From Flectonema sp. DT1601 (Eukaryota): a stretch of 64,000 nucleotides of DNA. Under the pieces are notes generated by a model that was given only the letters and a program-made list of their open reading frames with translations, was not told where the DNA came from and did no database searches. This document shows positions 917 through 56,576 of this stretch, piece by piece. A program made the position numbers and the translations under genes. Location: positions 186,001 through 250,000 of the forward strand of contig OZ025785.1 in the NCBI GenBank assembly GCA_964019425.1, written 5' to 3'. Numbering within the stretch: position 1 is the stretch's first letter; each line of letters starts with the position of its first letter.

Positions 917-1155
917 GCATCTCCAATCGCGAAGTTCTTGTTTTTCTAATTTTGTTTTTTTCCCGATGAGAGATGATTATTTGTAAATTTGTATCAAATT
1001 AAACATAGAAAAGATCAATAATGGTGTAGAAGTACGTCAGTCAATCCATTAAAGCTCAGCATCTGAATACCTGGTTGGGGGATGAGAGGTGATATAAAAA
1101 AAAATAAATAAATAAAAAATGTATTTTTTTTTTTTCGCAAGACTGGCGAAAATTA

Positions 1156-3836: not shown

Positions 3837-3911
3837 GCTTCAGACGTATTTATTATCTTCTAACAAGTACTATTCAGTCAATGTAGGTAAGTAAGATTAA
3901 ATCATCACACG
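3837..3911 (-). ncRNA. Terminal (tenth) C/D snoRNA copy with a variant D-box guide
   Basis: Same C, D' and C' boxes; D guide TAATAAATACGT-CTGA instead of TAATAAATATTG-CTGA. Confidence 0.75.
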
Positions 3912-5731
3912 AAGAACAGACACAAGACGACATCCAGAGAGTTGCTGCATACTACCAGAGATGAGCAACTCTCCACAACACAAGGACAGGACACTCAGAA
4001 CACAAAGAGCAGCCATCAAACAAATAACTTCACTGATAGTCAGCAATATTTATTATCTTCTAACAAGTACTATTCAGTCAATGTAGGTAAGTAAGATTAA
4101 ATCATCACACGAAGAACAGACACAAGACGACATCCAGAGAGTTGCTGCATACTACCAGAGATGAGCAACTCTCCACAACACAAGGACAGGACACTCAGAA
4201 CACACAGAGCAGCCATCAAACAGATAACTTCACTGATAGTCAGCAATATTTATTATCTTCTAACAAGTACTATTCAGTCAATGTAGGTAAGTAAGATTAA
4301 ATCATCACACGAAGAACAGACACAAGACGACATCCAGAGAGTTGCTGCATACTACCAGAGATGAGCAACTCTCCACAACACAAGGACAGGACACTCAGAA
4401 CACACAGAGCAGCCATCAAACAGATAACGTCACTGATAGTCAGCAATATTTATTATCTTCTAACAAGTACTATTCAGTCAATGTAGGTAAGTAAGATTAA
4501 ATCATCACACGAAGAACAGACACAAGACGACATCCAGAGAGTTGCTGCATACTACCAGAGATGAGCAACTCTCCACAACACAAGGACAGGACACTCAGAA
4601 CACACAGAGCAGCCATCAAACAGATAACTTCACTGATAGTCAGCAATATTTATTATCTTCTAACAAGTACTATTCAGTCAATGTAGGTAAGTAAGATTAA
4701 ATCATCACACGAAGAACAGACACAAGACGACATCCAGAGAGTTGCTGCATACTACCAGAGATGAGCAACTCTCCACAACACAAGGACAGGACACTCAGAA
4801 CACACAGAGCAGCCATCAAACAGATAACTTCACTGATAGTCAGCAATATTTATTATCTTCTAACAAGTACTATTCAGTCAATGTAGGTAAGTAAGATTAA
4901 ATCATCACACGAAGAACAGACACAAGACGACATCCAGAGAGTTGCTGCATACTACCAGAGATGAGCAACTCTCCACAACACAAGGACAGGACACTCAGAA
5001 CACACAGAGCAGCCATCAAACAGATAACTTCACTGATAGTCAGCAATATTTATTATCTTCTAACAAGTACTATTCAGTCAATGTAGGTAAGTAAGATTAA
5101 ATCATCACACGAAGAACAGACACAAGACGACATCCAGAGAGTTGCTGCATACTACCAGAGATGAGCAACTCTCCACAACACAAGGACAGGACACTCAGAA
5201 CACACAGAGCAGCCATCAAACAGATAACGTCACTGATAGTCAGCAATATTTATTATCTTCTAACAAGTACTATTCAGTCAATGTAGGTAAGTAAGATTAA
5301 ATCATCACACGAAGAACAGACACAAGACGACATCCAGAGAGTTGCTGCATACTACCAGAGATGAGCAACTCTCCACAACACAAGGACAGGACACTCAGAA
5401 CACACAGAGCAGCCATCAAACAGATAACTTCACTGATAGTCAGCAATATTTATTATCTTCTAACAAGTACTATTCAGTCAATGTAGGTAAGTAAGATTAA
5501 ATCATCACACGAAGAACAGACACAAGACGACATCCAGAGAGTTGCTGCATACTACCAGAGATGAGCAACTCTCCACAACACAAGGACAGGACACTCAGAA
5601 CACACAGAGCAGCCATCAAACAGATAACGTCACTGATAGTCAGCAATATTTATTATCTTCTAACAAGTACTATTCAGTCAATGTAGGTAAGTAAGATTAA
5701 ATCATCACACGAAGAACAGACACAAGACGAC
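3847..5731. repeat. Tandem array of a 200-bp unit, about 9.4 near-identical copies
   Basis: TATTATCTTCTAACAAGTAC recurs at 3851, 4051 ... 5651. Confidence 0.98.
4037..5711 (-). ncRNA. Nine tandem box C/D snoRNA copies (about 75 nt each, e.g. 4037-4111), SNORD34/U34/snR62-like
   Basis: Minus strand: GTGATGA (C) ... CTTACCTACATTG-A-CTGA (D') ... AGAAGA (C'-like) TAATAAATATTG CTGA (D). The D' guide is complementary to the conserved LSU rRNA CAAUGUAGGUAAG, and the fifth-nucleotide rule gives the same U as U34. Confidence 0.8.
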
Positions 5732-7435: not shown

Positions 7436-10400
7436 TTAATAATAACATACCGGGAGAGTATGGTCCGATCTCACAGAGCTGGGAGCTGCCAGTGAAGGTG
7501 ATTCTTCCATAGCACGACTTCTCCTAAGTGTTTGTTCTACTCTCTCATCCATCTTTGATATGTAACTGAGAACGTCTATGGTGTTGTCACCACAACGACT
7601 ACCACCACCTCCAATGCTTATGTCTGATAGACCTAAATCTATTCTATCAACTAGTGAGGGTGATCTAGATCGTTTTGGGCTTACTCTCTTTGTAGGTGCT
7701 GGTTCATAATAAAATATCGGTTTAGTACCTTTTATAGCATCATTTCGACTTTCAGAAGTCAAAGAATCGACCCCACTCGCATATCGAATACTGTCATCTT
7801 TATCATGAAGGATCGAGTGTGTTGCGTTTTTTAAAAAATTCGTATAGTCGTGACTGTCGTCAATTTTTGATGATAACGCGTTCCTAACCTGCTGATGTTC
7901 AGATGAAAGAGTCGTGTATTCCCTTCTTAGTAAAAGATCGTTCGATGACAGCAGTTCATTTTGTTGAGATAAATCACTAATTCGTTTCTTTAAATTGTTA
8001 GTTTCTGACAAATCAAATGAACTACTTCTCTTTTCTAAATTCGATATTTTCGCTTCCATAATCGATATTAAAGTTTCTCTGCTATGTAATGAATCTGATA
8101 GCTGAGACACTTGTCTGTGATCTTGATTTCTACTACTTTGAAGTTGTTTAACTTCCATACTCGATCTCTCTGCTTGTTTCCGAAGTACAATATTCTGTTC
8201 CATCATACTGTTAACGTACTGTTTGGCTCTCACTTCTGGAGTAACAACTCTCACGACTCTACTAACAGATTCTCTCATTGACTGATATAGGCTTCCTTTT
8301 GAATAATATTTCACAGGTCTTTCTGACAGAATCTTTTCCATTAAACTAAAAACTCCTTCAACATCCTCTTGAGTTGTTGTTTTATAATCAGATGATGTAA
8401 TTTGAGAATTCTCCGGTGGGTATGGAAGTTTTAACCCAGGTTCGATTCCGGGTGAGGTAGAAATAATTGGAATGCGATCTCCGCGGGAGGTCTTCAAGTA
8501 GAGGAGTTTTGGACGGCGGAGGAGGAGTTTTTTCAATCGGATGGTGGCGAGGACGGCTGAAGCGAATTTCCGCATTGATTTTGGTATGATTTTAACAGTT
8601 GGGAAGTGCTGAGTTTCGTACACTCGACAAGCATTTTGTAGAGCATTCGACCAGGCTATCAGTGCGTTTCGTTGAAATACTACTTCTGAGTGACTCTCAT
8701 ACAGAGGCGACAACACTCTCGTTAATACAATTAGTCCTTTATGACATCTTATTAAGGATTGTGATTGTTCTTTATTTATTGTTGTTAGTTTACCAATCTC
8801 ATGTCTTGATTGCTTGATGTTGTCTTGTAATTCTTCGAACGACTGTTGTTGTTGAGAAGCTGTGTTTGTAACCAACTGCAGCTCACGATCTTTGGTAGAA
8901 ACTTCTCTTTGAAGCATTTCAATTTCTGATGTCTTTTTGTTGTAGTCATCTTGAGAGTCTTGTAGAAGAGATAATCGTTGTGTTGTTTCGTTTAATTGAT
9001 TGTCAGTAATGACAAGACGTCTCTGAAGGTCTTCAATCACAACTTTTTCCTTTGAGTTCTGTCTCTGTAGATCAGAATTCTTAATTGAAACACTTTCAAC
9101 AGATTGAGTTAAGACTCCAATCTGTTGTCTGGCTAGTTGGAGTTCTGATTTATGAGATGTGAGGTCAAGAGACATGTCAGAATTGTCAATTCTCGAACGT
9201 GATATGGTTTGTTCCATTCCTTGTATTTTCATAAATAACTGATCTCTGTCAGATGTATATTTCACAGATAGCTCACGAGTAACTCTTTCAATCTCTGCTC
9301 TCTTCTGATCCTCAGACAGAGCTACAGTTCGTCGCATATCTTCATGAGATTCTGTTAAGGTATTCCTAGCAGTACTTAGTGATGTTTCAAGGTCTTGGTT
9401 ACGTTGTTGAAGGTCTTTTGATTTTTTCAATTCTCTGTCAGAATGTTGAACTGATGACGTTATAAAATCATTAATCATAAATAAAATAGTTTCAAAAGAG
9501 AGAGACTCTCCATCTGGTTTGCGGGATTCAGTTCCGTGGATCTGAATTATCTTACTCGCAGATGATTGGAGTGAACTGTTTCTACTTTCCAAAGTGTTTT
9601 TCAAATGTTCCAATTCACTTTTAGTAACAGACATTGCTGCTTCCAACAAGTTGAAAGCGTCAGTTTTCTCTCTCAATTCTTTAGTCGTCCCTTCGTATCT
9701 GTTGTAGAGAAGTTCATTCTCTTGCAATGCAGTCTCTCTTGCTCTGTCCAACTGAGTCATTTCGTGGGCGGTGTTTGTGACAGTTGCTTGGGACTCACGT
9801 GCTTCTTTACGCAGACGGGTGACTTCAGAGCAAAGTGTTATCGTGTTTGATCTCACATCTGTTGCTGCTTGCAAGAGTAACGGAGATAAGTGGACATGTG
9901 TAAGCCCACTCTCAACTAAGGATACCAAATCAAGATGTTCTCCTGCAGTAATTGCATCCACAACAGCTCCGAGTGATCTGAATTCACATTCAGCTTCCGT
10001 ACCAATCTGAGCAACTTTCACTAATAGAGTTTCATTGTGTTCTCTGAGACGATTAGCTTCAGTATTAGACAGAGATAGTTTATCCTTTTCGTGCTTCAAT
10101 TCTAATTTTATTTGTTCGGTTGCTGAGTTTGCCTGTCTGACCTGACCCCGTAGTATTTCAACAGATGCTACTTCTGATGACAGTTCTTTAATAAGTTGTT
10201 CAAGACTTGTTATGTTACTCTGAAGTGTCACGTTGTCATGTTGGAGTAGTTCTCTATTTGTTCTTTCTGTTTCTAGTTGACTGATTAGAGCAGAAGCGTC
10301 TTTTTTAGTTAAATCTAGTTCTCGGCTGAAACGAGAAATTTCAAGTACTTGATTCCTCAGTGACGGTATGGTTTCATTTTCTTTTTCTAACTGAGTCAGG

Positions 10401-11185
10401 TTGTCATTCAAATGAGATACAGTGGTGTTCAATTGTTGAATAACTGATCCTTGTTCAGATTTGAAGTTGTGCAGCATTTCTGTTGTCGATCGCAGCTCAG
10501 TTATAATTTCATCTCTGCGAGAAATCTCCTTTTCGAGAAGTGCTATTTTAGTTTCCTTTTCTTTGTTGAGCGAAGTAATCTCTTGGAGTTGCTTGCTTAC
10601 AGATGTTATTTCCTGTTGAAAACTACCATTACGAGATCGTAGTTCAGATTCTTTCTCTCCTAAGAGAGTTTTTGATAAACCAGCTGCACGTTCGTATGAA
10701 AGAAGTTGTTGTTGCAATGAAGTGTTGGTAGCGACGTGTCTTTGAGCGTCTTCTAGTAGAGCGGCTATGTGTGATTCTAAGTCTTGGATCTTATCTTCGT
10801 AGGCCTTCCTCATGGTAATGTTATCTTTTTCAAACCGTGTACATCTATGATGAAGTGAAGCTTGAACGTCATCATTTTGTTTTAATATGGTTTGTATTGA
10901 TTCTTGAATCTTACCATTCTCTTGTCCTCTTATTCTCAGCTTCTCTTCCAATATACTAATGTCTGCTTTTCTATTAAAAGACTCTTCTTTATATCTGAGG
11001 AGATCATTAACTTGTTGTTGGAGTTCATATATTCGACCACCTTCTGTCGTGTTGCTCCTTCCTAACCTACTCAAGGCACTCTGCTGCATTCCTACGGCTG
11101 ACAAGTTCGATTCCTGCGTTGCTTGATTTTCTCGACTTAGAAGCTCAGTTAGTTCTGATTTGAGTATTCTTGGTGGAGAGGACAT
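7436..11185 (-). CDS. Large coiled-coil protein, CCDC171-like
   Basis: About 1249-aa intronless ORF (first ATG at 11185; the track start at 11206 is GTG), heptad-rich. LSPLY...FQRNAL and MRKFASAVLATIRLK resemble CCDC171 motifs as recalled; not searched. Confidence 0.75.
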   Translation of the reverse strand: MSSPPRILKSELTELLSRENQATQESNLSAVGMQQSALSRLGRSNTTEGGRIYELQQQVNDLLRYKEESFNRKADISILEEKLRIRGQENGKIQESIQTILKQNDDVQASLHHRCTRFEKDNITMRKAYEDKIQDLESHIAALLEDAQRHVATNTSLQQQLLSYERAAGLSKTLLGEKESELRSRNGSFQQEITSVSKQLQEITSLNKEKETKIALLEKEISRRDEIITELRSTTEMLHNFKSEQGSVIQQLNTTVSHLNDNLTQLEKENETIPSLRNQVLEISRFSRELDLTKKDASALISQLETERTNRELLQHDNVTLQSNITSLEQLIKELSSEVASVEILRGQVRQANSATEQIKLELKHEKDKLSLSNTEANRLREHNETLLVKVAQIGTEAECEFRSLGAVVDAITAGEHLDLVSLVESGLTHVHLSPLLLQAATDVRSNTITLCSEVTRLRKEARESQATVTNTAHEMTQLDRARETALQENELLYNRYEGTTKELREKTDAFNLLEAAMSVTKSELEHLKNTLESRNSSLQSSASKIIQIHGTESRKPDGESLSFETILFMINDFITSSVQHSDRELKKSKDLQQRNQDLETSLSTARNTLTESHEDMRRTVALSEDQKRAEIERVTRELSVKYTSDRDQLFMKIQGMEQTISRSRIDNSDMSLDLTSHKSELQLARQQIGVLTQSVESVSIKNSDLQRQNSKEKVVIEDLQRRLVITDNQLNETTQRLSLLQDSQDDYNKKTSEIEMLQREVSTKDRELQLVTNTASQQQQSFEELQDNIKQSRHEIGKLTTINKEQSQSLIRCHKGLIVLTRVLSPLYESHSEVVFQRNALIAWSNALQNACRVYETQHFPTVKIIPKSMRKFASAVLATIRLKKLLLRRPKLLYLKTSRGDRIPIISTSPGIEPGLKLPYPPENSQITSSDYKTTTQEDVEGVFSLMEKILSERPVKYYSKGSLYQSMRESVSRVVRVVTPEVRAKQYVNSMMEQNIVLRKQAERSSMEVKQLQSSRNQDHRQVSQLSDSLHSRETLISIMEAKISNLEKRSSSFDLSETNNLKKRISDLSQQNELLSSNDLLLRREYTTLSSEHQQVRNALSSKIDDSHDYTNFLKNATHSILHDKDDSIRYASGVDSLTSESRNDAIKGTKPIFYYEPAPTKRVSPKRSRSPSLVDRIDLGLSDISIGGGGSRCGDNTIDVLSYISKMDERVEQTLRRSRAMEESPSLAAPSSVRSDHTLPVCYY

Positions 11186-11964
11186 TTGATCTTTATCTCT
11201 CTTCACTTCACTCGCTCAACTCACTCAACTCACCCTCCTCCTCTTCCACTTCTCTTACCGATCCTTTATTGTTACTGAAGAAATGTGAAGATTTAATTAA
11301 TCGTTTTTGAGTCGAATATAATTTTTAATTAACTCTCAATTCTGAGAGCTACCTGAAAGTTAGTCAACTTGATTTCATTATAATTAGTTGGCAGTGTTTT
11401 CACAAAACGAGTATTCATTTGGTACACAAAAGGTTTGTTAATGTTATTTTAGATATCTGATGTATTTATTGCAAGACATCAATTAAATAAAAAAGTTAGG
11501 TTCTCAGGATAAAAAGGTCAGGCTTTGAATTCCAAAATTGGAGGCGAATATGCCGAGAGAGAGAGAGAAAGAGAAAAAAAACTCTCTCACACACAAAAGC
11601 CTTGCAAAACTACTAATTCATGTGGGTCATAATTTTATTATTTGATATATAGGTAGTTTGTTAAAAAAAGGAGAGTTTGAGGTTTCTTTTTTTAATATTG
11701 TATCAAGAAAAGTTAACTAAAAAATAAAACTATTAGTTATGATACACGTTGACTAAAGGTAATGTTAGTATCGGTAAACACTCTGCATGTGACGTAAAGA
11801 CTTCACACTATAATTATAATGCAAGGTCCCTACGTTAGAGGAGGAGGGGGGATGTATGTTCGATTTTGTAAAAATTACAACTGTGTTGTATCATAAAAAC
11901 ATAAAGATAATTTAACATTAGTTTTAAATACAGTGACTAAGGGTGATGCGCAACTTAGCCTTTT

Positions 11965-12102
11965 AAAGTAACTATTAGGTTTCGAGAGTAATCCATATAC
12001 CCTCTTACCTCTATTCTCTCTCATCAGTATGGTGTAGAAGTAAGTCAATCAAATGTTGAGACTGAGTCATTCCAGTTTGCAGGACTGGAATGTAGTTACT
12101 TT
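11965..12102 (-). ncRNA. Predicted rearranged hammerhead ribozyme, family A copy 1
   Basis: CCATA CTGATGA GAGAG..TAGAGGTAAG AGGGTA^TATGG ATTA CTCTC GAAACCT; predicted cut between 11998 and 11997. Confidence 0.7.
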
Positions 12103-12571
12103 AAGTTTCACGTTCATAATAAAAAAAACATATTATTTACTGTTACTAGTTCGTAAAAAGGAAGGGGGTTGAGGAATATCAAAAGAAACTTATATAAAAA
12201 AACCCCCCATTCACCCTCTACAACAATAATCTACTAAAGATAAATTGATTATAATGATGTTTTGTTAGATATGTAAAGGATGTTAACGGCTACTGGTCGA
12301 TGTTGAAAAAAGGAAGAAAAAGGAGATCAAATTAAAATAATTCAAAAGAAGAAGAAGAGAAGAGAAGGAAATCATCACAAGACAATCAGTTAAAATTAAC
12401 TGGGGTTGGTATTTATTTTTTTAAAAAAAACTGATCGCTGTTGTACAACATTACAAAACTTCCTTCCTCCACAGTACTTCCACGTCCATTGAAAACATGT
12501 GGACAGGAGCTGGGAGTTCGGATGGCCTTCAGTCTTTCAGTGTCGGGGTATTCAACATTCGAAATAAAATA

Positions 12572-17989: not shown

Positions 17990-20111
17990 TGTTATATTTT
18001 ATTAGGTTACTTGTTATTGTAATCAAACTTTGAGGAATTCTTAAATTGCATAAAAACTGAAACACTGTTTTATCAACTCCGAGTTGCTTAAGTGAGAACA
18101 GTTGGTGCGTTCACTCTCACAACTCTTCAGGTTACTTTCTTTTATTTGTCCCTGATGAAGATTTTAGACAGAGTGGGTATTGCTGAAAGATAAGTGTAAT
18201 AATAATATTAATGTATTCATAGGAAACTCACTCACTCAACTCACCCTCCTCCTCTTCCACTTCTCTTACCGATCCTTTATTGTTACTGAAGAAATGTGAA
18301 GATTTAATTAATCGTTTTTGAGTCGAATATAATTTTTAATTAACTCTCAATTCTGAGAGCTACCTGAAAGTTAGTCAACTTGATTTCATAATAATTAGTT
18401 GGCAGTGTTTTCACAAAACGAGTATTCATTTGGTACACAAAAGGTTTGTTAATGTTATTTTAGATATCTGATGTATTTATTGCAAGACATCAATTAAATA
18501 AAAAGTTAGGTTTTCAGGATAAAAAGGTCAGGCTTTGAATTCCAAAATTGGAGGCGAATATGCCGAGAGAGAGAGAGAAAGAGAAAAAAACTCTCTTACA
18601 CACAAAAACCTTGCAAAACTACTAATTCATGTGGGTCATAATTTTATTATTTGATATATAGGTAGTTTGTTAAAAAAAGGAGAGTTTGAGGTTTTTTTTT
18701 TTTTTAATATTGTATCAAAAAAAGTTAACTAAAAAATAAAACTATTAGTTATGATACACGTTGACTAAAGGTAATGTTAGTATCGGTAAACACTCTGCAT
18801 GTGACGTAAAGACTTCACACTATAATTATAATGCAAGGTCCCTACGTTAAAGGAGGAGGGGGGTAATTTGATACGATACGAAAAGATTTATCTGGGAAGA
18901 ATACTGCAGGTCTTTGCACAAAAGAATAAAAGTACTGTCACCATGAAACAGGAGGGGGTTGAGGAATATCAAAAAGAATTATTCAAAAAAAAACCCATTC
19001 ACCCTCTACAACAATAATCTACTAAAGATAAATTGATTATAATGATGTTTTGTTAGATATGTAAAGGATGTTAACGGCTACTGGTCGATGTTGAAAAAAG
19101 TAAGAAAAAGGAGATCAAATTAAAATAATTCAAAAGAAGAAGAAGAGAAGAGAAGGAAATCATCACAAGACAATCAGTTAAAATTAACTGGGGTCGGTAT
19201 TTATTTTTTTTAAAAAAAACTGATCGTTGTTGTACAACATTACAAAACTTCCTTCCTCCACAGTACTTCCACGTCCATTGAAAACATGTGGACAGGAGCA
19301 GGGAGTTCGGATGGCCTTCAGTCTTTCAGTGTCGGGGTATTCAACATTCGGAATAAAGTATTTAAAAAAAAAAAAAAAAACTAAAATAAAATAAAATAAA
19401 AAACACTCAATTATTTGGTAATCAGCAAAATACTGAAAACAAATACCACCGCTGACCAGCTTCAAAGGGTGCCAAAAATCCCACAGGTACGGACTTGATG
19501 GGAAAAAACTCCCCTCACCAGTCAGTAACTTGTATCGTATGTTTTCGTATCTTTGCTCACATTAGTTTGGTACACAAAAGGTTTCTAAAACTCTGTTGTG
19601 TATTCGCAAGAATGGTTAGGGAAGGAAATAAAAAGTTTTTCAAAAAAAAAAAAAGGAAAAGGAAAAGAATTGAACTTCAAGAATTCGCACAAAGAGGATT
19701 ATTTCATTAGTTCACTCAAAGAAAGATGAAATAAACAAAACCCCCACGACAAAGGATAGGACGGAGTTCAGTCATATTTACTTCGAAATCATTCACACTT
19801 AACTTTTGGGGTTATCTCGGGGAGAGGGAAAAACAACTAAAGCAACGGGCAAGGTTATGGGTGTTTTCTGTTTACACTTTCTTCTATTCGTAGTATTTTT
19901 TATTCTTTTTTTTTTTTTCATTTCACACTCAAAATTGAAATCCCTCGAGTTGACATAATTTGTGTCACCAATTCGACGGGACATTATTATCATCGCAGTG
20001 AGACGACTGTTTTTACTTCACAACAATCTTTTTAATGAACAGATAGAAATGATTTGAGATCCAGAGGAGGGATGTCTTCAGACGAGTACATCACAGCGTG
20101 ATATTCGTAGC

Positions 20112-20634
20112 CTACCAGAAGGGAATCGCGAAGTAGTAGTCTTTCAGTGAGTAGTCACCAAGAATGTCTTTTATTGTGTTATAATTGGATATGTCTTTGA
20201 CAGTATCGTAACCTTTATATTCCTCATCACTTCCAATAAAGAGGAAAAAATGTGTACGTGATCCTCTATGTGAAACTATAAGAAATGGTATACGTTTAAG
20301 GTTCTGTTTTGAGACCTTGAGTAAGATATCTTGTAGATCTTCATCTGTAGTTACATGTGTAGACTCGAGGTTCAGGTAGATCCGAAGTGTTTCATAAATG
20401 ACAAGTTGATGGAACCATCCATCTTCTTCGAATTTGAACATCTTTAAAAACTTCTATTTCCTTCAAACCATCCGTGTTAAGTACTGTCTGATAGAGTTGA
20501 CGTTGAATTAGAAACATTTTTGATATCTCAATTCTCTTCTCCTTAAGATGGTCAGCTATAAAGTTAATAACAGCCCATCCACACTCACCTCCACTTAGAC
20601 CTTCACCTGAAGTTTTATGAAGAGTTGTTGGGAA
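20112..20634 (-). pseudogene. Disrupted Josephin/papain-like cysteine protease tail of copy 2
   Basis: In frame after the TGA: FPTTLHKTSGEGLSGGECGWAVINFIADHL; after a +1 shift: DGWFHQLVIYETL...THFFLF...YDT (candidate Cys/His/Asp triad). Confidence 0.65.
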
Positions 20635-23600
20635 TCATTCATCTGATGCTGACGGATCTGCTTCTGAGTAAGAGAGACCATTATGAGAACCAACTGAAAT
20701 CCGATTAGTCTTCAGAAAAGAATACTTTTTAGTGTTTTGTCCATCAGAACCATTACACGGAATTGTATTCAGAGAGGGATTGCCTTGTCCCTTATAATCC
20801 TTATGCAGGTGGGGATACTTTGTTTTTGCAGGAGAGTAATTGATATTTCCATTTACAGTTTCTTCTAATTTCGCACAATTAAGTTTCAAGGGACCGAATC
20901 TAAAAGTGTTCTCAATGAGTTCTGTTCCTGTGAAGTACACACAGCCAATGAGTTTTTTTAATTTTCTGGATTTACTTACTTTGAATTTTCCTCCTTCCCA
21001 GCTGCTTATGTCTTGATGTTCATAAAAAGTTGTGTTAAAAACGACGAAATATGGGATCTCGTTCCTTTCAAGAAACTCGACACACTCCGATTCGAGAATG
21101 TTACTTTTGACCGTCGGCCACGAATCAGGCGACGGCATAAATTTGTCCTGCATAAGAGCCACCAATAGATCATCCCCACAGTAAAACGGAACAATACGTT
21201 CTACTCCCTTTTCGCATTGCTTCTTTGATGCGACAGTGTAACCATCCTTCAAGTAGTTTAGCATAGTCTTGTCGTGATCCTTATTATATAATTCATTGTT
21301 CTCAACAGTAGTTTCAGCGAGCCTTTTTTGCGATTTCCCCAGGTTCTTGACATTCTTCACTAATGATGTCTCCGTCTCCAGTATATTTATTTTGAGTTTC
21401 TTTTCTTCAAAACTCTCATCACTGGTGGATCCCTCCTTTAAGCTCTTGAACTTTGCCCCTGCAAAAAATTCCTTCACTGTAACTACCTCTTTATTAACTA
21501 AAAGAATCTTTCTAATACACTCAAAGTTCATTGTTACGGTTTCCATGTTCTTCTCTTGTCCTGGAACACATAAGACGTCACCCTCGTAAGCATCTCGTAG
21601 ATGATTCTTTAGTAACTTAATGAGATTATTATTACCATCGATGTCATCATTGTTGTCATCATTAGCCCACAGTCTTAACAACTGAGGTACCAAATACTGT
21701 AGGCCGTCTGCATCCTGAATTAATCCCTTCTCCTTCCAAAGTTCTAAATCATCACCTGACACGCTACCAGTGAACCAACGACATACATTCTTATAATTGA
21801 GGAAGTTATTTATTATATTTAACTTTACTCTCGAGTATGACTTCTTAATCTTATAACTAAAAACACTCTCAGAATCATTCGTGTCGAGTAATGAGAGGAG
21901 TCCCGGGTTACCTCCACACGACAGAAATGATTGCCAAAGAGACTTCGATTCACGAATAACTTTCATCTTTTCATCAGCAATCGCAAGGATCGAATTTTCC
22001 GGACTGAGATTGTACAACGGAATACTTGAGATGGATCCGTCTGTCGTCAAATAGTCAGAATCGAGTCCTGTGAAGACGAACATGACACGCTTGTTGGAGT
22101 TCTTCCTTGAGTCATCTTGAATGGTCATGAGTGCAGAGATAAGGGACTGCACATATTGGGATTGCACATTTCCTTTCTGTCCATCATCGTGTGGGATGAG
22201 ATCATCGACGAAGATGATCATACCCTTGCGGTTCTCGTATTTCTTGAGATCGAATAGCTGTTCTATTATCTCTACCAGGGAAGGTGGAGACTGAGCAGTT
22301 TCGTCACTTATCCCATTGGAAGACAGCAGTTGGGTAGTAAACTGTTTGATTTGTTCATCTTTATCATTAGACAGTTCGACTGGTTCAGAATAAGTGACGA
22401 CAACAGAAATGAATTCTTCTTCATTAACCTCAGCTGACATGTTTTTAATGAATGTTGTCTTCCCAGCCCCAGGGATACCAATCGCTGCCAGGGGTTTGAA
22501 TCCGCCGCCCTCTTTATTTTTATTTAGAAACTGGTCCTCATCTTCTCCAAAAAAGAATGCCTCTTTATATTTATTAAATACTTCGATGCTCTTTTCACGC
22601 CCAAGAAATGGTTTAAATGGTTCACTTGCCCATCTGAGAGAATTTAACTTTTGTTTGGAATCCTTGATTTTTGAACCTTCGATCGCTTTTTCTAATTCGA
22701 TGCTCTCTCCTAATTTAGCGACATTTCCTTCTAATTTATCATTCTGAAGTTTAGTACAACCCCTTTTTAATCCTGTGATGTCTGTTATAATTGACATAGT
22801 ACCATTAATTAATATCCACATGCTCATTGGTAATTCCTTCTCTTTTATTGTTTTGATGCACGGTAATAATTTGGTGATTTCATTTGATATTCGTCGATTA
22901 TTAATTAAGCGATTGATGTATGCTTTTTGGTCCGTGTCTAATTGTCCGGAATAAAAATTAAAAACTTCGTTATTTTCCCAACCTTCGACTCCATTTTGTA
23001 GTTCATTGATGCACTCTGTTGGTTCAATACAACTTTTTCTTATGTTTTCGATCTCTTCTAAACTTTTTAAACATAGTTCGGTGGTATCGTTTTTTAGTTT
23101 CTTTTTTGAGTCCTCAATTTTGTTTTCTAATTCCGTATTATTTGGTACCACGTCTTCTGATGATGCGATGGCCACCAAAAATAGAAAAGTCTTAAACATT
23201 TCGAAGATAGTACTTATTGTGCTGATTTGCGTATTAATTGTGGAAATGATATCACCTAACGCAGATTTGGATTTTCCAAGGCTGCCTAAACTTTTGATGG
23301 CTGTTTCGATATTATTTTCAAAAGGCTTATTATTAATTAATTTATTAATTAAATTTTTTAGTTTTTTACCAATGGTCAAGTTTAGTTGAGTAGCAGCCCT
23401 ACGATCTTTGGCCTTTATTTGTAATTCATTCCAGCTGCTTGTTAACGATTCTACATGCTCGGTTTTTGTTACGTTGATGCTCGTTACTAATTTGATGATT
23501 TCATTTAATACTAATTGATCTTTAATCAAGCAATTGATGACCGGTTCATAGGTATCGATGCACTTCGTGGTAGTTTCCAATTGGAACTTTTCATCATCTG

Positions 23601-24081: not shown

Positions 24082-25066
24082 TGTTATATTTTATTAGGTT
24101 ACTTGTTATTGTAATCAAACTTCGAGGAATTCTTAAATTGCATAAAAACTGAAACACCGTTTTATCAACTCCGAGTTGCTTAAGTGAGAACAGTTGGTGA
24201 GTTCACTCTCACAACCCTTCAGGTTACTTTCTTTCATTTGTCCCTGATGAAGATTTTAGACAGAGTGGGTATTGCTGAAAGATAAGTGTAATAATAATAT
24301 TAATGTATTCATAGGAAACTCACTCACTCAACTCACCCTCCTCTTCTTCCACTTCTCTTACCGATCCTTTATTGTTACTGAAGAAATGTGAAGATTTAAT
24401 TAATCGTTTTTTGAGTCGAATATAATTTTTAATTAACTCTCAATTCTGAGAGCTACCTGAAAGTTAGTCAACTCGATTTCATTATAATTAGTTGGCAGTG
24501 TTTTCACAAAACGAGTATTCATTTGGTACACAAAAGGTTTGTTAATGTTATTTTAGATATCTGATGTATTTATTGCAAGACATCAATTAAATAAAAAAGT
24601 TAGGTTCTCAGGATAAAAAGGTCAGGCTTTGAATTCCAAAATTGGAGGCGAATATGCCGAGAGAGAGAGAGAAAGAGAAAAAAACTCTCTCACACACAAA
24701 AGCCTTGCAAAACTACTAATTCATGTGGGTCATAATTTTATTATTTGATATATAGGTAGTTTGTTAAAAAAAGGAGAGTTTGAGGTTTTTTTTTTAATAT
24801 TGTATCAAAAAAAGTTAACTAAAAAATAAAACTATTAGTTATGATACACGTTGACTAAAGGTAATGTTAGTATCGGTAAACACTCTGCATGTGACGTAAA
24901 GACTTCACACTATAATTATAATGCAAGGTCCCTACGTTAAAGGAGGAGGGGGGATGTATGTTCGATTTTGTAAAAATTACAACTGTGTTGTATCATAAAA
25001 ACATAAAGATAATTTAACATTAGTTTTAAATACAGTGACTAAGGGTGATGCGCAACTTAGCATATT

Positions 25067-25202
25067 AAAGTAACTATAGGTTTCGAGAGTAATCCATATA
25101 CCTCTTACCTCTATTCTCTCTCATCAGTATGGTGTAGAAGTAAGTCAGTCAAATGTTGAGACTGAGTCATTCCAGTTTGCAGGACTGGAATGTAGTTACT
25201 TT
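25067..25202 (-). ncRNA. Predicted rearranged hammerhead ribozyme, family A copy 2 (best preserved)
   Basis: Stem I CCATA/TATGG, stem II GAGAG/CTCTC, stem III ACCT/AGGT, pseudoknot CTTACTTCTA/TAGAGGTAAG, intact CTGATGA, GAAA and GTA; predicted cut between 25099 and 25098. Confidence 0.75.
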
Positions 25203-26432
25203 AAGTTTCACGTTCATAATAAAAAAAACATATTATTTACTGTTACTAGTTCGTGAAAAGGAAGGGGGTTGAGGAATATCAAAAGAAATTTATAAAAAAA
25301 AAACCCATTCACCCTCTACAACAATAATCTACTAAAGATAAATTGATTATAATGATGTTTTGTTAGATATGTAAAGGATGTTAACGGCTACTGGTCGATG
25401 TTGAAAAAGGTAAGAAAAAGGAGATCAAATTAAAATAATTCAAAAGCAGAAGAAGAGAAGAGAAGGAAATCATCACAAGACAATCAGTTAAAATTAACTG
25501 GGGTTGGTATTTATTTTTTTTTAAAAAAAACTGATCGTTGTTGTACAACATTACAAAACTTCCCTCCTCCACAGTACTTCCACGTCCATTGAAAACATGT
25601 GGACAGGAGCAGGGAGTTCGGATGGCCTTCAGTCTTTCAGTGTCGGAGTATTCAACATTCGAAATAAAATATTTAAAAAAAACAAAAAAACTAAAATAAA
25701 AAACACACACTCAATTATTTGGTAATCAGCAAAATACTGAAAATAAATACCACCGCTGACCAGCTTCAAAGGGTACCAAAAATCCCACAGGTACGGACTT
25801 GATGGGAAAAAACTCCCCTCACCAGTCAGTAACTTGTATCGTATGTTTTCGTATCTTTGCTCACATTAGTTTGGTACACAAAAGGTTTCTAAAACTCTGT
25901 TGTGTATTCGCAAGAATGGTTAGGGAAGGAAATAAAAAAATTTTCAAAAAAAAAAAAAAAATTGAACTTCAAGAATTCGCACAAAGAGGATTATTTCATT
26001 AGTTCACTCAAAGAAAGATGAAATAAACAAAACCCCCACGACAAAGGATAGGACGGAGTTCAGTCATATTTACTTCCAAATCATTCACACTTAACTTTTG
26101 GAGTTATCTCGGGGAGAGGGAAAAACAACTAAAGCAACGGGCAAGGTTGTGGGTGTTTTCTGTTTACACTTTCTTCTATTCGTAGTATTTTTTATTCTTT
26201 TTTTTTTTTTCATTTCACACTCAAAATTGAAATCCCTCGAGTTGACATAATTTGTGTCACAAATTCGACGGGACATTATTATCATCGCAGTGAGACGACT
26301 GTTTTTACTTCACAACAATCTTTTGAATGAGCAAGTAGAAATGATTTGAGATCCAGAGGAGGGATGTCTTCAGACGAGTACATCACAGCGTGATATTCGT
26401 AGTCTTTCAGTGAGTACTTAACAAGAATGCCA

Positions 26433-30158: not shown

Positions 30159-31803
30159 TGTTATATTTTATTAGGTTACTTGTTATTAATCAAACTTTGA
30201 GGAATTCTTAAATTGCATAAAAACTGAAACACCGTTTTATCAACTCCGAGTTGCTTAAGTGAGAACAGTTGGTGCGTTCACTCTCACAACCCTTCAGGTT
30301 ACTTTCTTTCATTTGTCCCTGATGAAGATTTTAGACAGAGTGGGTATTGCTGAAAGATAAGTGTAATAATAATATTATTGTATTCATAGGAAACTCACTC
30401 ACTCAACTCACCCTCCTCCTCTTCCACTTCTCTTACCGATCCTTTATTGTTACTGAAGAAATGTGAAGATTTAATTAATCGTTTTTTGAGTCGAATATAA
30501 TTTTTAATTAACTCTCAATTCTGAGAGCTACCTGAAAGTTAGTCAACTTGATTTCATTATAATTAGTTGGCAGTGTTTTCACAAAACGAGTATTCATTTG
30601 GTACACAAAAGGTTTGTTAATGTTATTTTAGATATCTGATGTATTTATTGCAAGACATCAATTAAATAAAAAAGTTAGGTTCTCAGGATAAAAAGGTCAG
30701 GCTTTGAATTCCAAAATTGGAGGCGAATATGCCGAGAGAGAGAGAAAGAGAAAAAAAACTCTCTCACACACAAAAGCCTTGCAAAACTACTAATTCATGT
30801 GGGTCATAATTTTATTATTTGATATATAGGTAGTTTGTTAAAAAAAGGAGAGTTTGAGGTTTTTTTTTTTTAATATTGTATCAAAAAAAGTTAACTAAAA
30901 AATAAAACTATTAGTTATGATACACGTTGACTAAAGGTAATGTTAGTATCGGTAAACACTCTGCATGTGACGTAAAGACTTCACACTATAATTATAATGC
31001 AAGGTCCCTACGTTAAAGGAGGAGGGGGAACTTGGTAATTTGATACGATACGAAAAGATTTATCTGGGAAGAATACTGCAGGTCTTTGTACAAAAGAATA
31101 AAAGTACTGTCACCATGAAACAGGAGGGGGGGTTGAGGAATATCAAAAAGAATTATTCAAAAAAAAACCCATTCACCCTCTACAACAATAATCTACTAAA
31201 GATAAATTGATTATAATGATGTTTTGTTAGATATGTAAAGGATGTTAACGGCTACTGGTCGATGTTGAAAAAAGTAAGAAAAAGGAGATCAAATTAAAAT
31301 AATTCAAAAGAAGAAGAAGAGAAGAGAAGAAAATCATCAAAAGACAATCAGTTAAAATTAACTGGGGTTGGTATTTATTTTTTTTAAAAAAAACTGATCG
31401 TTGTTGTACAACATTACAAAACTTCCTTCCTCCACAGTACTTCCACGTCCATTGAAAACATGTGGACAGGAGCAGGGAGTTCGGATGGCCTTCAGTCTTT
31501 CAGTGTCGGGGTATTCAACATTCGAAATAAAATATTTAAAAAAAACAAAAAAACTAAAATAAAAAACACTCAATTATTTGGTAATCAGCAAAATACTGAA
31601 AACAAATACCACCGCTGACCAGCTTCAAAGGGTGCCAAAAATCCCACAGGTACGGACTTGATGGGAAAAAACTCCCCTCACCAGTCAGTAACTTGTATCG
31701 CATGTTTTCGTATCTTTGCTCACATTAGTTTGGTACACAAAAGGTTTCTAAAACTCTGTTGTGTATTCGCAAGAATGGTTAGGGAAGGAAATAAAAAGTT
31801 TTT

Positions 31804-31842
<39 letters not shown>

Positions 31843-32278
31843 ACTTCAAGAATTCGCACAAAGAGGATTATTTCATTAGTTCACTCAAAGAAAGGTGAAA
31901 TAAACAAAACCCCCACGACAAAGGATTGGACGGAGTTCAGTCATATTTACTTCCAAATCATTCACACTGAGCTTTTGGGGTTATCTCGGGGAGAGGGAAA
32001 AACAACTAAAGCAACGGGCAAGGTTGTGGGTGTTTTCTGTTTACACTTTCTTCTATTCGTAGTATTTTTTATTCCTTTTTTTTTTCATTTCACACTCAAA
32101 ATTGAAATCCCTCGAGTTGACATAATTTGTGTCACCAATTCGACGGGACATTATTATCATCGCAGTGAGACGACTGTTTTTACTTCACAACAATCTTTTT
32201 AATGAACAGGTAGAAATGATTTGAGATCCAGAGGAGGGATGTCTTCAGACGAGTACATCACAGCGTGATATTCGTAGC

Positions 32279-32951
32279 CTACCAGAAGGGAATCGCGAAG
32301 TAGTAGTCTTTCAGTGAGTAGTCACCAAGAATGTCATTTATTGTGTTATAATTGGATATGTCTTTGACAGGATCGTAACCTTCATATTCCTCATCACTTC
32401 CAATAAAGAGAAAATAATGTGTACGTGGTGCTCTAAGTGAAACTATAAGAAATGGTATACGCTTGTTTGAGACCTCTTGTTCTATAACGTCTAGTTCGTC
32501 AATAGTTACATGTGTAGACCTGAAGGACAGGTAGATTCCTAATTGATTCATAAATGACATGTTGATGGAACCATCCATCTTCTTCGAATTTGAACATCTT
32601 TAAAAACTTCTATTTCCTTCAAACCATCCGTGTTAAGTACAGTCTGATAGCGTTGACGTTGAATTAGAAACATTTTTGATATCTCAATTCTCTTCCTCCC
32701 CTCAAGATGGTCAGCTATAAAGTTAATAACAGCCCATCCACACTCACCTCCACTTAGACCTTTACCTGAAGTTTTATGAAGAGTTGTTGGGAATCGGTTA
32801 TCTGATGCTAATCTGATCTATTTCTGTTATGATTAGAGAGACCATTATGAGAACCAACTGAAATCGGATTAGTCTTCAGAAAAGGATACTTTTTAGTGTT
32901 TTGTCCATCAGAACCATTACACGGAATTGTATTCAGAGAGGGATTGTCTTG
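32279..32951 (-). pseudogene. Disrupted Josephin-like protease tail of copy 4
   Basis: Homologous to 20112-20634 (DNRFPTTLHKTSGKGLSGGECGW...THYFLF...YDP); separated from the gene by a TGA and frameshifts. Confidence 0.65.
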
Positions 32952-36227: not shown

Positions 36228-37212
36228 TGTTATATTTTATTAGGTTACTTGTTATTGTAATCAAACTTCGAGGAATTCTTAAATTGCATAAAAACTGAAA
36301 CACCGTTTTATCAACTCCGAGTTGCTTAAGTGAGAACAGTTGGTGAGTTCACTCTCACAACCCTTCAGGTTACTTTCTTTCATTTGTCCCTGATGAAGAT
36401 TTTAGACAGAGTGGGTATTGCTGAAAGATAAGTGTAATAATAATATTAATGTATTCATAGGAAACTCACTCACTCAACTCACCCTCCTCTTCTTCCACTT
36501 CTCTTACCGATCCTTTATTGTTACTGAAGAAATGTGAAGATTTAATTAATCGTTTTTTGAGTCGAATATAATTTTTAATTAACTCTCAATTCTGAGAGCT
36601 ACCTGAAAGTTAGTCAACTCGATTTCATTATAATTAGTTGGCAGTGTTTTCACAAAACGAGTATTCATTTGGTACACAAAAGGTTTGTTAATGTTATTTT
36701 AGATATCTGATGTATTTATTGCAAGACATCAATTAAATAAAAAAGTTAGGTTCTCAGGATAAAAAGGTCAGGCTTTGAATTCCAAAATTGGAGGCGAATA
36801 TGCCGAGAGAGAGAGAGAAAGAGAAAAAAACTCTCTCACACACAAAAGCCTTGCAAAACTACTAATTCATGTGGGTCATAATTTTATTATTTGATATATA
36901 GGTAGTTTGTTAAAAAAAGGAGAGTTTGAGGTTTTTTTTTTAATATTGTATCAAAAAAAGTTAACTAAAAAATAAAACTATTAGTTATGATACACGTTGA
37001 CTAAAGGTAATGTTAGTATCGGTAAACACTCTGCATGTGACGTAAAGACTTCACACTATAATTATAATGCAAGGTCCCTACGTTAAAGGAGGAGGGGGGA
37101 TGTATGTTCGATTTTGTAAAAATTACAACTGTGTTGTATCATAAAAACATAAAGATAATTTAACATTAGTTTTAAATACAGTGACTAAGGGTGATGCGCA
37201 ACTTAGCATATT

Positions 37213-37348
37213 AAAGTAACTATAGGTTTCGAGAGTAATCCATATACCTCTTACCTCTATTCTCTCTCATCAGTATGGTGTAGAAGTAAGTCAGTCAAAT
37301 GTTGAGACTGAGTCATTCCAGTTTGCAGGACTGGAATGTAGTTACTTT
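37213..37348 (-). ncRNA. Predicted rearranged hammerhead ribozyme, family A copy 3
   Basis: Identical to 25067-25202 (within the duplication). Confidence 0.75.
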
Positions 37349-38578
37349 AAGTTTCACGTTCATAATAAAAAAAACATATTATTTACTGTTACTAGTTCGT
37401 GAAAAGGAAGGGGGTTGAGGAATATCAAAAGAAATTTATAAAAAAAAAACCCATTCACCCTCTACAACAATAATCTACTAAAGATAAATTGATTATAATG
37501 ATGTTTTGTTAGATATGTAAAGGATGTTAACGGCTACTGGTCGATGTTGAAAAAGGTAAGAAAAAGGAGATCAAATTAAAATAATTCAAAAGCAGAAGAA
37601 GAGAAGAGAAGGAAATCATCACAAGACAATCAGTTAAAATTAACTGGGGTTGGTATTTATTTTTTTTTAAAAAAAACTGATCGTTGTTGTACAACATTAC
37701 AAAACTTCCCTCCTCCACAGTACTTCCACGTCCATTGAAAACATGTGGACAGGAGCAGGGAGTTCGGATGGCCTTCAGTCTTTCAGTGTCGGAGTATTCA
37801 ACATTCGAAATAAAATATTTAAAAAAAACAAAAAAACTAAAATAAAAAACACACACTCAATTATTTGGTAATCAGCAAAATACTGAAAATAAATACCACC
37901 GCTGACCAGCTTCAAAGGGTACCAAAAATCCCACAGGTACGGACTTGATGGGAAAAAACTCCCCTCACCAGTCAGTAACTTGTATCGTATGTTTTCGTAT
38001 CTTTGCTCACATTAGTTTGGTACACAAAAGGTTTCTAAAACTCTGTTGTGTATTCGCAAGAATGGTTAGGGAAGGAAATAAAAAAATTTTCAAAAAAAAA
38101 AAAAAAATTGAACTTCAAGAATTCGCACAAAGAGGATTATTTCATTAGTTCACTCAAAGAAAGATGAAATAAACAAAACCCCCACGACAAAGGATAGGAC
38201 GGAGTTCAGTCATATTTACTTCCAAATCATTCACACTTAACTTTTGGAGTTATCTCGGGGAGAGGGAAAAACAACTAAAGCAACGGGCAAGGTTGTGGGT
38301 GTTTTCTGTTTACACTTTCTTCTATTCGTAGTATTTTTTATTCTTTTTTTTTTTTTCATTTCACACTCAAAATTGAAATCCCTCGAGTTGACATAATTTG
38401 TGTCACAAATTCGACGGGACATTATTATCATCGCAGTGAGACGACTGTTTTTACTTCACAACAATCTTTTGAATGAGCAAGTAGAAATGATTTGAGATCC
38501 AGAGGAGGGATGTCTTCAGACGAGTACATCACAGCGTGATATTCGTAGTCTTTCAGTGAGTACTTAACAAGAATGCCA

Positions 38579-42304: not shown

Positions 42305-43949
42305 TGTTATATTTTATTAGGTTACTTGTTATTAATCAAACTTTGAGGAATTCTTAAATTGCATAAAAACTGAAACACCGTTTTATCAACTCCGAGTTGC
42401 TTAAGTGAGAACAGTTGGTGCGTTCACTCTCACAACCCTTCAGGTTACTTTCTTTCATTTGTCCCTGATGAAGATTTTAGACAGAGTGGGTATTGCTGAA
42501 AGATAAGTGTAATAATAATATTATTGTATTCATAGGAAACTCACTCACTCAACTCACCCTCCTCCTCTTCCACTTCTCTTACCGATCCTTTATTGTTACT
42601 GAAGAAATGTGAAGATTTAATTAATCGTTTTTTGAGTCGAATATAATTTTTAATTAACTCTCAATTCTGAGAGCTACCTGAAAGTTAGTCAACTTGATTT
42701 CATTATAATTAGTTGGCAGTGTTTTCACAAAACGAGTATTCATTTGGTACACAAAAGGTTTGTTAATGTTATTTTAGATATCTGATGTATTTATTGCAAG
42801 ACATCAATTAAATAAAAAAGTTAGGTTCTCAGGATAAAAAGGTCAGGCTTTGAATTCCAAAATTGGAGGCGAATATGCCGAGAGAGAGAGAAAGAGAAAA
42901 AAAACTCTCTCACACACAAAAGCCTTGCAAAACTACTAATTCATGTGGGTCATAATTTTATTATTTGATATATAGGTAGTTTGTTAAAAAAAGGAGAGTT
43001 TGAGGTTTTTTTTTTTTAATATTGTATCAAAAAAAGTTAACTAAAAAATAAAACTATTAGTTATGATACACGTTGACTAAAGGTAATGTTAGTATCGGTA
43101 AACACTCTGCATGTGACGTAAAGACTTCACACTATAATTATAATGCAAGGTCCCTACGTTAAAGGAGGAGGGGGAACTTGGTAATTTGATACGATACGAA
43201 AAGATTTATCTGGGAAGAATACTGCAGGTCTTTGTACAAAAGAATAAAAGTACTGTCACCATGAAACAGGAGGGGGGGTTGAGGAATATCAAAAAGAATT
43301 ATTCAAAAAAAAACCCATTCACCCTCTACAACAATAATCTACTAAAGATAAATTGATTATAATGATGTTTTGTTAGATATGTAAAGGATGTTAACGGCTA
43401 CTGGTCGATGTTGAAAAAAGTAAGAAAAAGGAGATCAAATTAAAATAATTCAAAAGAAGAAGAAGAGAAGAGAAGAAAATCATCAAAAGACAATCAGTTA
43501 AAATTAACTGGGGTTGGTATTTATTTTTTTTAAAAAAAACTGATCGTTGTTGTACAACATTACAAAACTTCCTTCCTCCACAGTACTTCCACGTCCATTG
43601 AAAACATGTGGACAGGAGCAGGGAGTTCGGATGGCCTTCAGTCTTTCAGTGTCGGGGTATTCAACATTCGAAATAAAATATTTAAAAAAAACAAAAAAAC
43701 TAAAATAAAAAACACTCAATTATTTGGTAATCAGCAAAATACTGAAAACAAATACCACCGCTGACCAGCTTCAAAGGGTGCCAAAAATCCCACAGGTACG
43801 GACTTGATGGGAAAAAACTCCCCTCACCAGTCAGTAACTTGTATCGCATGTTTTCGTATCTTTGCTCACATTAGTTTGGTACACAAAAGGTTTCTAAAAC
43901 TCTGTTGTGTATTCGCAAGAATGGTTAGGGAAGGAAATAAAAAGTTTTT

Positions 43950-43988
<39 letters not shown>

Positions 43989-44424
43989 ACTTCAAGAATT
44001 CGCACAAAGAGGATTATTTCATTAGTTCACTCAAAGAAAGGTGAAATAAACAAAACCCCCACGACAAAGGATTGGACGGAGTTCAGTCATATTTACTTCC
44101 AAATCATTCACACTGAGCTTTTGGGGTTATCTCGGGGAGAGGGAAAAACAACTAAAGCAACGGGCAAGGTTGTGGGTGTTTTCTGTTTACACTTTCTTCT
44201 ATTCGTAGTATTTTTTATTCCTTTTTTTTTTCATTTCACACTCAAAATTGAAATCCCTCGAGTTGACATAATTTGTGTCACCAATTCGACGGGACATTAT
44301 TATCATCGCAGTGAGACGACTGTTTTTACTTCACAACAATCTTTTTAATGAACAGGTAGAAATGATTTGAGATCCAGAGGAGGGATGTCTTCAGACGAGT
44401 ACATCACAGCGTGATATTCGTAGC

Positions 44425-45097
44425 CTACCAGAAGGGAATCGCGAAGTAGTAGTCTTTCAGTGAGTAGTCACCAAGAATGTCATTTATTGTGTTATAATTG
44501 GATATGTCTTTGACAGGATCGTAACCTTCATATTCCTCATCACTTCCAATAAAGAGAAAATAATGTGTACGTGGTGCTCTAAGTGAAACTATAAGAAATG
44601 GTATACGCTTGTTTGAGACCTCTTGTTCTATAACGTCTAGTTCGTCAATAGTTACATGTGTAGACCTGAAGGACAGGTAGATTCCTAATTGATTCATAAA
44701 TGACATGTTGATGGAACCATCCATCTTCTTCGAATTTGAACATCTTTAAAAACTTCTATTTCCTTCAAACCATCCGTGTTAAGTACAGTCTGATAGCGTT
44801 GACGTTGAATTAGAAACATTTTTGATATCTCAATTCTCTTCCTCCCCTCAAGATGGTCAGCTATAAAGTTAATAACAGCCCATCCACACTCACCTCCACT
44901 TAGACCTTTACCTGAAGTTTTATGAAGAGTTGTTGGGAATCGGTTATCTGATGCTAATCTGATCTATTTCTGTTATGATTAGAGAGACCATTATGAGAAC
45001 CAACTGAAATCGGATTAGTCTTCAGAAAAGGATACTTTTTAGTGTTTTGTCCATCAGAACCATTACACGGAATTGTATTCAGAGAGGGATTGTCTTG
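44425..45097 (-). pseudogene. Disrupted Josephin-like protease tail of copy 6
   Basis: Identical to 32279-32951. Confidence 0.65.
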
Positions 45098-54601: not shown

Positions 54602-54891
54602 AGTCTTCTGTAGATAACTTCTCATCAACCGCTGGGTCATAAGTATACATGTAATCGGTTTCATACTTCCAGTTCAGCTCTGGAGAGACATCAAGATGGA
54701 TCCCATATGAAGATACCAGATGGCGACCACCTACAATCACGCTTTAGTCTGCGATCATCACGAAGGGTTTCTTCACAGTGTTGTTAGTTAGAATATGAGT
54801 TTATTATAAAAAAGTGCACTAAAATAAAATATAAAAAAGAAAAATTATAAAAACACATTGTTCTGCTGTTCCATAATACACTGCGGAATAC

Positions 54892-56544: not shown

Positions 56545-56576
<32 letters not shown>

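Follow-up and report, generated by a model that had tools for sequence, protein, structure and literature searches.

In the nomenclature of Eckert, Friedrich, Weinberg and Weinberg (2023; PMC10085705), hammerhead ribozymes are composed of three sequence blocks, C, S and G, and the classical types (I, II and III) have the orders CGS, GSC and SCG. The same study described a type CSG from soil metagenome DNA, represented by two unique sequences (five in total) that stand, in the part of the paper available to us, without organism or genomic context. CSG-1 and CSG-2 both cleave in vitro at the predicted site, with rates of 0.004 and 0.026 per min, respectively, and do so during transcription, but the discoverers rated the evidence for biological relevance of this type as weaker (PMC10085705). 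For another rearranged class, type SGC, all four helices were confirmed via compensatory mutants (PMC10085705).

A second body of work concerns Penelope-like elements (PLEs). Elements of the Naiad and Chlamys groups dominate many invertebrate and algal genomes and are partly defined by hammerhead absence; Craig, Yushenova, Rodriguez and Arkhipova (2021; PMC8557442) reported, in the sections available, that Naiad and most Chlamys elements are without canonical hammerheads. Eight Naiads were nevertheless flagged there as carrying a 'half core', with the second half of the core located 35–50 nt away (PMC8557442).

The 64,000-nt window, i.e., the whole stretch of DNA analyzed here, contains on its minus strand at 25065–25204 what is almost certainly a real hammerhead domain of type CSG (family B), with a 12-bp stem closing it. 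Read from 25204 to 25065, the 5′ strand of the closing stem (25193–25204; partner 25065–25076; pair probabilities 0.67–1.0) is followed by two hairpins obtained by folding, i.e., hairpin 1 (9 bp, 25168–25192) and hairpin 2 (6 bp, 25145–25165), the first strand of an extra helix, a stem I strand, CUGAUGA, a stem II strand and AA. The second half of the chain continues with the extra-helix partner, a stem III strand, GUA, the other stem I strand, AUUA, the other stem II strand, GAAA, the other stem III strand and the closing partner. Block C thereby occupies 25116–25132 (stem I strand 25132–25128, CUGAUGA 25127–25121, stem II strand 25120–25116), block S 25094–25103 (stem III strand, GUA 25101–25099, stem I strand 25098–25094) and block G 25078–25089 (stem II strand 25089–25085, GAAA 25084–25081, stem III strand 25080–25078), and the 4-nt linker AUUA leads from stem I to stem II at 25090–25093. 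The extra helix, present in the pairing table and in the pair probabilities, has 10 bp including one G-U (25144–25135/25113–25104). Stem I (25132–25128/25098–25094) and stem II (25120–25116/25089–25085) have 5 bp each, and stem III has 3 bp past the A15.1-U16.1 pair, i.e., 3(+1). Hammerhead numbering places the predicted cut in block S at 25099/25098, and judging from the sequence, the predicted RNA would very probably cleave there, after GUA.

The minus strand folds with a z of −5.45 across the 25 kb domain versus −4.18 for the plus strand. In nested folding, the closing stem, the extra helix and stem III reach pair probabilities of 0.67–1.0, and both loops stay available to stems I and II, the crossing helices, which are both short and have duplex energies of −3.2 and −4.9 kcal/mol, respectively. 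A first-pass annotation of this DNA had proposed an intact minus-strand core (CUGAUGA, GAAA and GUA), helices I, II and III, a 10-bp extra helix with a G-U pair, two hairpins and a closing stem; all of these are located on the minus strand, and the closing stem extends to the 12 bp given above. The same annotation listed further copies at 11965, 37213 and 62643, all of which are real according to self-comparison of the window.

Across the five copies now recognized in the window, the defining hammerhead elements are all present, i.e., the core CUGAnGA and GAAA, the NUH triplet and the A15.1-U16.1 pair. Blocks C, S and G are each uninterrupted and follow one another in that order, and the extra helix (10 bp in family B, 8 bp in family A) and the I-II linker of 4–5 nt are likewise as in type CSG. 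The annotation had read the fold as pseudoknotted, not circularly permuted and outside types I, II and III; the order is indeed none of these and equals type CSG as published (PMC10085705), and its doubt about novelty was justified by that publication. The topology is already known, and the retroelement setting is new: in a literature search with most subscription journals outside its reach, no paper was found that ties type CSG to Naiad or Chlamys tails or to an assembled eukaryotic genome.

Compared with CSG-1 and CSG-2, the 25 kb copy has the same C-S-G order and an intact core, and was likewise found in DNA. A helix with its strands immediately 5′ of stem I and immediately 3′ of stem II is common to them, as is the 4-nt I-II linker, with the letters AUUA in both; the annotation had considered so short a connection plausible, and it suits the known hammerhead geometry (PMC10085705). 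The extra helix is longer here (10 bp, compared with 7–8 bp), stem III is shorter, and the closing stem and the two hairpins are additions. Furthermore, the window copies are multi-copy in an assembled eukaryotic genome, fall into two families and lie in retroelement 3′ UTRs, in contrast to the published pair. The published CSG search pattern requires 4 or more pairs in stem III and a II-to-III gap no longer than 10 nt (PMC10085705), and it would miss the 25 kb copy because stem III has 3 pairs and the gap is 12 nt.

Type-SGC hammerheads (HRIMA-1, PMC10085705) share with the window fold the circular block order, the extra helix and the I-II linker, but their chain opens elsewhere, and they derive from metatranscriptome circular RNAs, not from retroelements. 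The type I hammerheads in the pseudo-LTRs of canonical PLEs and in non-LTR retrozymes (PMC11167929; bioRxiv 10.64898/2026.07.22.740005) are, in the available text, likewise close to the end of the element and have the orientation of the reverse transcriptase (RT) frame, and an extra U after CUGAUGA is common among them, as in the 62.7 kb copy. These are, however, three-way junctions of order C-G-S, whereas in the window fold a pair of crossing helices joins two hairpin loops. Non-LTR retrozymes are recognized by tandem units of 150–400 nt, each with a type I hammerhead; the copies in the window are single and of type CSG.

A strict Watson-Crick descriptor with the order CSG recovered two of the five copies and had no match in 30 shuffles, and its versions with the other five block orders had no match in the window. 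Types I, II and III (CGS, GSC and SCG with nested stems) are among these unmatched orders. Relaxing the descriptor recovered four copies (scores 24, 24, 24 and 21); the one missed, at 62.7 kb, is lost owing to a single extra U after the core. The relaxed form matched four times in 300 shuffles, once with a score of 21 and never with 24, and on the basis of these descriptor-versus-shuffle results a chance origin of the folds is dismissed. Rfam gave no match at gathering score in the whole window, as the annotation had anticipated in stating that standard models miss the fold, and the six weak matches at E ≤ 10 include no hammerhead. Beyond the window, a CSG pattern scan yielded at least 142 loci (24 viral and at least 118 from metagenomes), and none of 142 passed the pairing test; AUUA and a stem I of 5 nt were obligatory in the pattern, and its outcome is not evidence of absence. 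The same reading applies to a second CSG pattern, for which viral sequences gave no loci.

All copies are on the minus strand. The copy at 37211–37350 is identical to that at 25 kb over 181 nt and lies inside a segmental duplication with a 12,146-bp period. At 11963–12104, a near-identical copy (97%) has one G-U in stem III and two 1-nt insertions outside the core. The 62643–62780 copy is 90% identical over 161 nt, with an extra U after CUGAUGA, a stem I of 4 bp and a double change of U-A to C-G in hairpin 1. The fifth copy, absent from the annotation's list, is a diverged fold at 54884–54965 that defines family A (CUGAUGA 54944–54938, predicted cut 54914/54913, GAAA 54899–54896), with an 8-bp extra helix of other letters and a 5-bp closing stem. 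The distance from CUGAUGA to GAAA is 36–38 nt in the window copies. The three copies at 12, 25 and 37 kb belong to segmental duplications and probably stem from a single insertion, so that the five copies probably represent three independent insertions.

Between families A and B, seven of the 12 pairs in stems I–III are changed on both sides, four are the same and one is a mismatch; these changes were read from a core-anchored table, the diverged copy being out of register in the MAFFT alignment, and with two independent families as their base they do not amount to a statistical covariation test. The family A stems are weaker, with duplex energies of +0.3 kcal/mol for stem I and −1.9 kcal/mol for stem II, the latter having an A-C mismatch and an A-U in place of G-C at its base. 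The 25 and 62.7 kb copies differ in 3 of 68 core columns compared with 45 of 170 flanking columns (Fisher p = 5.5e-5); over the whole domain, 14 of 142 columns differ, and a second test against the flanks gave p = 2.4e-4. In both families the fold begins 104 nt past a stop codon. A further family B variant is contained in record 13 of run X3 (over 25128–25165), where hairpin 1, compared by eye, has two double changes and one mismatch. A 24-nt match to hairpin 2, the extra-helix strand and the stem I strand is also present at 1021–1044 (minus strand); it is without a core and was rejected as a sixth copy.

The family A ribozyme directly adjoins a Chlamys-type reverse transcriptase remnant at 55070–56190 (minus strand), which is 5′-truncated and internally deleted, and retains the YVDD motif, the thumb and a peptidase-like C-terminal domain. 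The stop codon of the family is at 55072–55070, and the spacing of 104 nt is counted from there. The remnant is 72–73% identical to a 59-member protein cluster from long contigs (40 members read, 15 listed), the full-length members of which have 1279–1350 aa and are composed of an N-terminal GIY-YIG domain without CxxC, followed by CxC, DK, RT and the C-terminal peptidase-like domain. The window itself holds the 3′ part of the RT only; the GIY-YIG domain is seen in P0008 and P0014 with conserved R, H and E, and the corresponding Pfam E-values are 0.14–0.15 in these two proteins and 3.5e-5 to 4.8e-4 in four relatives. CxC takes the form CNC and DK the form VDKG, and residues 230–345 contain one Cys; compared by eye with the published description, the endonuclease is without a CCHH motif. 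For the C-terminal domain, Pfam Peptidase_C39 scored E 0.1–0.2, a structure model had a pLDDT of 37, and searches of PDB and Atlas gave no match; from the likeness of its motifs, the domain is a candidate Josephin-like domain of the Chlamys-1_cBra type. Proteins related to the family A RT at E ≤ 0.001 number 1926. Viral contigs gave no relative of the RT, and a single match at E = 1e-3 in prokaryote genomes is taken as chance. Since the full-length relatives fit the description of Craig et al., we assign family A to a Chlamys-type element with high confidence. The features that the window elements and their relatives share with Chlamys are N-terminal GIY-YIG, CxC, DK and RT, a putative peptidase-like C-terminal extension resembling that of Chlamys-1_cBra, and, at the level of the element, (C)n targets, 5′ truncation and partial tandems (PMC8557442).

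Six of the 13 best RT relatives scanned (P0039, P0041, P0042, P0044, P0047 and P0048) carry a C-terminal ubiquitin hydrolase (UCH) domain, and one carries a calpain-like domain; proteases are common cargo of this PLE branch. A 22-codon piece of the same RT motif B is found at 60423–60500 (minus strand), apart from the remnant at 55–56 kb. Inverted and tandem repeats of 110–260 bp surround a 219-codon frame (57294–57953) at 56547–58769, and this segment looks like a DNA transposon truncating the RT remnant.

Family B is represented at 25 kb by a 307-bp piece (24948–25254, minus strand) that ends in a C run and matches 62528–62833 at 82%, with no other match nearby. At 62528–64000, the family B element runs past the window end. 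In contigs of runs X1 and X3 the cassette continues past 25251–25254 with letters like those from window position 62833 onward, and the 307-bp piece is therefore a 5′-truncated 3′ end. In run X2, the last 116 nt occur in a head-to-tail arrangement that includes an extension of 14 nt and resembles a pseudo-LTR. The 62.7 kb fold lies in a 3′ UTR, its 104 nt being counted from the stop of a T/K-rich frame, of which the 3′ part is seen at 62885–64000 (minus strand); this frame is repeated and belongs to a cluster of 10 proteins of up to 753 aa. Its first 17 residues are identical at 12 positions to the end of decayed peptidase-like remnants in the tandem units (20044–20655, also 32205–32799 and 44351–44945, and a short piece at 26333–26383; minus strand), and in family A the peptidase-like domain follows the RT. 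From this 12/17 match, the family B frame is probably the C-terminal tail of a second Chlamys-type protein. Like Chlamys elements, family B displays 5′ truncation, partial tandems and a (C)n target, and the ends of the family's elements lie in C runs.

Three sister repeat units have an unrelated piece of ~80 bp at the cassette's place (18864–18943, 31029–31115 and 43175–43261, minus strand), between the same C-rich flanks. These pieces may represent the tail of a different element that targets (C)n, and the three cassette-free units were rejected as true empty sites. A contig of RNA run X3 over 25000–25251 was likewise set aside as evidence of expression or habitat, as contigs are silent on strand, ends and transcription and the share of the run was small.

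The Naiad 'half core' gap of 35–50 nt (PMC8557442) compares with a gap of 36–38 nt in the window, where the fold is a full CSG hammerhead. By eye, and not by computation, an intact CSG fold is recognizable at the end, within the 3′ UTR, of all eight nematode Naiad consensus sequences inspected in the available supplement of PMC8557442; these are the consecutive entries Ppac, Parc, Nbra-1, Nbra-2, Nbra-3, Hcon, Hpol and Asuum, among which Ppac and Parc are near-identical. The nematode folds, also read by eye, have an extra helix of 9–16 bp, a stem I of 5–6 bp, a stem II of 4–5 bp, a stem III of 5–11 bp and a I-II linker of 2–5 nt, and their letters are largely different. A conserved role for the letters AUUA as a general feature was rejected on account of these linkers, which vary in length and have other letters. 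In several other Naiads read by eye in the same supplement (coral, box jelly, ostracod-region and mollusc-region entries), the order is S-G-C, i.e., the same circular order, with the chain opened inside an extra helix after A9, the stem II partner located upstream and CUGAUGA running into the extra helix. Among the CUGANGA matches listed for published Chlamys consensus sequences, which cover some core spellings, there was no CSG fold.

The type-CSG fold is thus likely an overlooked ribozyme of the Chlamys/Naiad group. A wider proposal, which we put forward tentatively and hold to be somewhat less probable than its opposite, is that non-circularly permuted hammerheads are standard across the Naiad/Chlamys branch from protists to animals, that they cut tandem transcripts into monomers whose ends remain paired and are re-ligated to circles used in retrotransposition, and that the soil CSG sequences are tails of such elements. 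If this were true, type CSG would be the form in nematodes and in the window, and other animals would have the same circular order opened inside the extra helix.

Our preferred reading of the 25 kb locus, which we consider probable as far as sequence can carry it, is that a CSG fold lies in the truncated tail of a likely Chlamys-type element and that the predicted RNA cuts after GUA, likely trimming tandem transcripts to units. Two hairpins would form first, i.e., the extra helix, whose loop comprises the stem I strand, CUGAUGA and the stem II strand, and stem III, whose loop comprises the cut site, the stem I strand, AUUA, the stem II strand and GAA. The loops would then pair via stems I and II to give an ordinary hammerhead core with the cut after GUA, and the extra helix together with the short linker would stand in for the loop I/loop II contact. 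After the cut, the products would be held by four helices including the closing stem, and re-ligation may be favored. In a partial tandem, the ribozyme would occur twice in a read-through transcript, and the cuts would release a monomer that may circularize; this step follows what has been proposed for the hammerheads of canonical Penelope elements and for retrozymes, and for a role of the ribozyme in transcript processing the balance is even.

Cleavage might instead be restricted to dimers or to pairs of tandem copies, stems I and II then being intermolecular and the single-molecule double pseudoknot absent. Minimal Penelope hammerheads cleave as dimers, the stems concerned are short and are given a probability of 0 by nested folding, an outcome that crossing helices would be expected to show, and run X2 has a head-to-tail arrangement. 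The cleavage of CSG-1 and CSG-2, which have the same layout, during transcription, the confirmation of all four helices of type SGC by compensatory mutants and the fit of the short I-II linker to known geometry (PMC10085705) nevertheless make this dimer-only scheme highly improbable. That the window copies are decayed, inactive remnants, with selection acting on their ancestors only, would agree with their location in truncated or broken elements throughout and with the weak stems of family A, but the 25 and 37 kb copies show no deviation in core or pairing, and we regard decay as very unlikely.

Family B could be a retroelement of its own, either non-autonomous or unrelated (retrozyme-like or of another class), that shares the ribozyme design and is not a Chlamys tail, as neither the 753-aa T/K-rich frame nor its cluster contains an RT domain and no longer relative of the frame was found. 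Its frame, however, begins with the motif that ends the peptidase-like remnants, a domain located behind the RT in family A, and the 104-nt spacing and the C-run ends are common to both families, which renders a separate origin unlikely. Finally, a real and active CSG ribozyme could be a passenger of the retroelement, with no role in retrotransposition or with the sole effect of setting RNA ends or stability. For the canonical PLE hammerhead, the available text of PMC11167929 reports that catalytic mutants had no effect on insertion in vitro and that read ends did not coincide with the cut site. Craig et al. (PMC8557442) raise the possibility that hammerheads are PLE parasites; moreover, none of the insertion boundaries in the window and run contigs examined falls at the predicted cut site. 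On the other hand, the position is kept in two diverged window families and in eight nematode families (PMC8557442, supplement), and the core is more conserved than the flanks, so that we rate the passenger explanation as decidedly unlikely.

Type CSG is represented in print by two similar sequences, given without organism or role in the part of PMC10085705 available. If the folds described here cut, this gap and the missing hammerhead of the Naiad/Chlamys group would be closed together: type CSG would acquire a host context and numerous diverged members, and the ribozyme would be a trait common to almost all Penelope-like elements, which would speak for a function and make it testable. The analysis also shows that standard and CSG-specific search patterns miss such folds and gives the reason, and it supplies structural studies with a compact ribozyme built from two hairpins.

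The surroundings of the 12, 25 and 37 kb copies are dominated by a tandem array of ~6-kb units (11219–50010, minus strand), each with an intron-free gene of 1090–1500 aa encoding a coiled-coil and a P-loop NTPase in a Crinkler-like architecture; the three copies lie within this array, and the 25 kb copy is a passenger duplicated with it. Every unit carries a copy of the region upstream of the host gene at 7436–11206, and in several units decayed Chlamys peptidase-like remnants directly follow the stop. The array genes match eukaryotic clusters of the NTPase/Crinkler-like kind, and an origin of the DNA from a prokaryote or phage was rejected, since long genes without introns, segmental duplications and a PLE indicate a eukaryote. 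Within 17112–47193, an 18-kb stretch is repeated with a period of 12,146 bp, its ribozyme cassettes being identical, and this repeat is a very recent duplication or an assembly effect. Outside the array, a tandem repeat with a 200-bp unit occupies 3847–5731 in 9.4 copies that are 99% alike, with a fold z of −1.0 and no hammerhead core in the repeat. A second Crinkler-like family is found at 60760–62441 and 53872–54384 (minus strand), each directly downstream of a CSG-bearing element tail; its NTPase and nuclease-like parts are in different frames, and a C-terminal fragment is separate.
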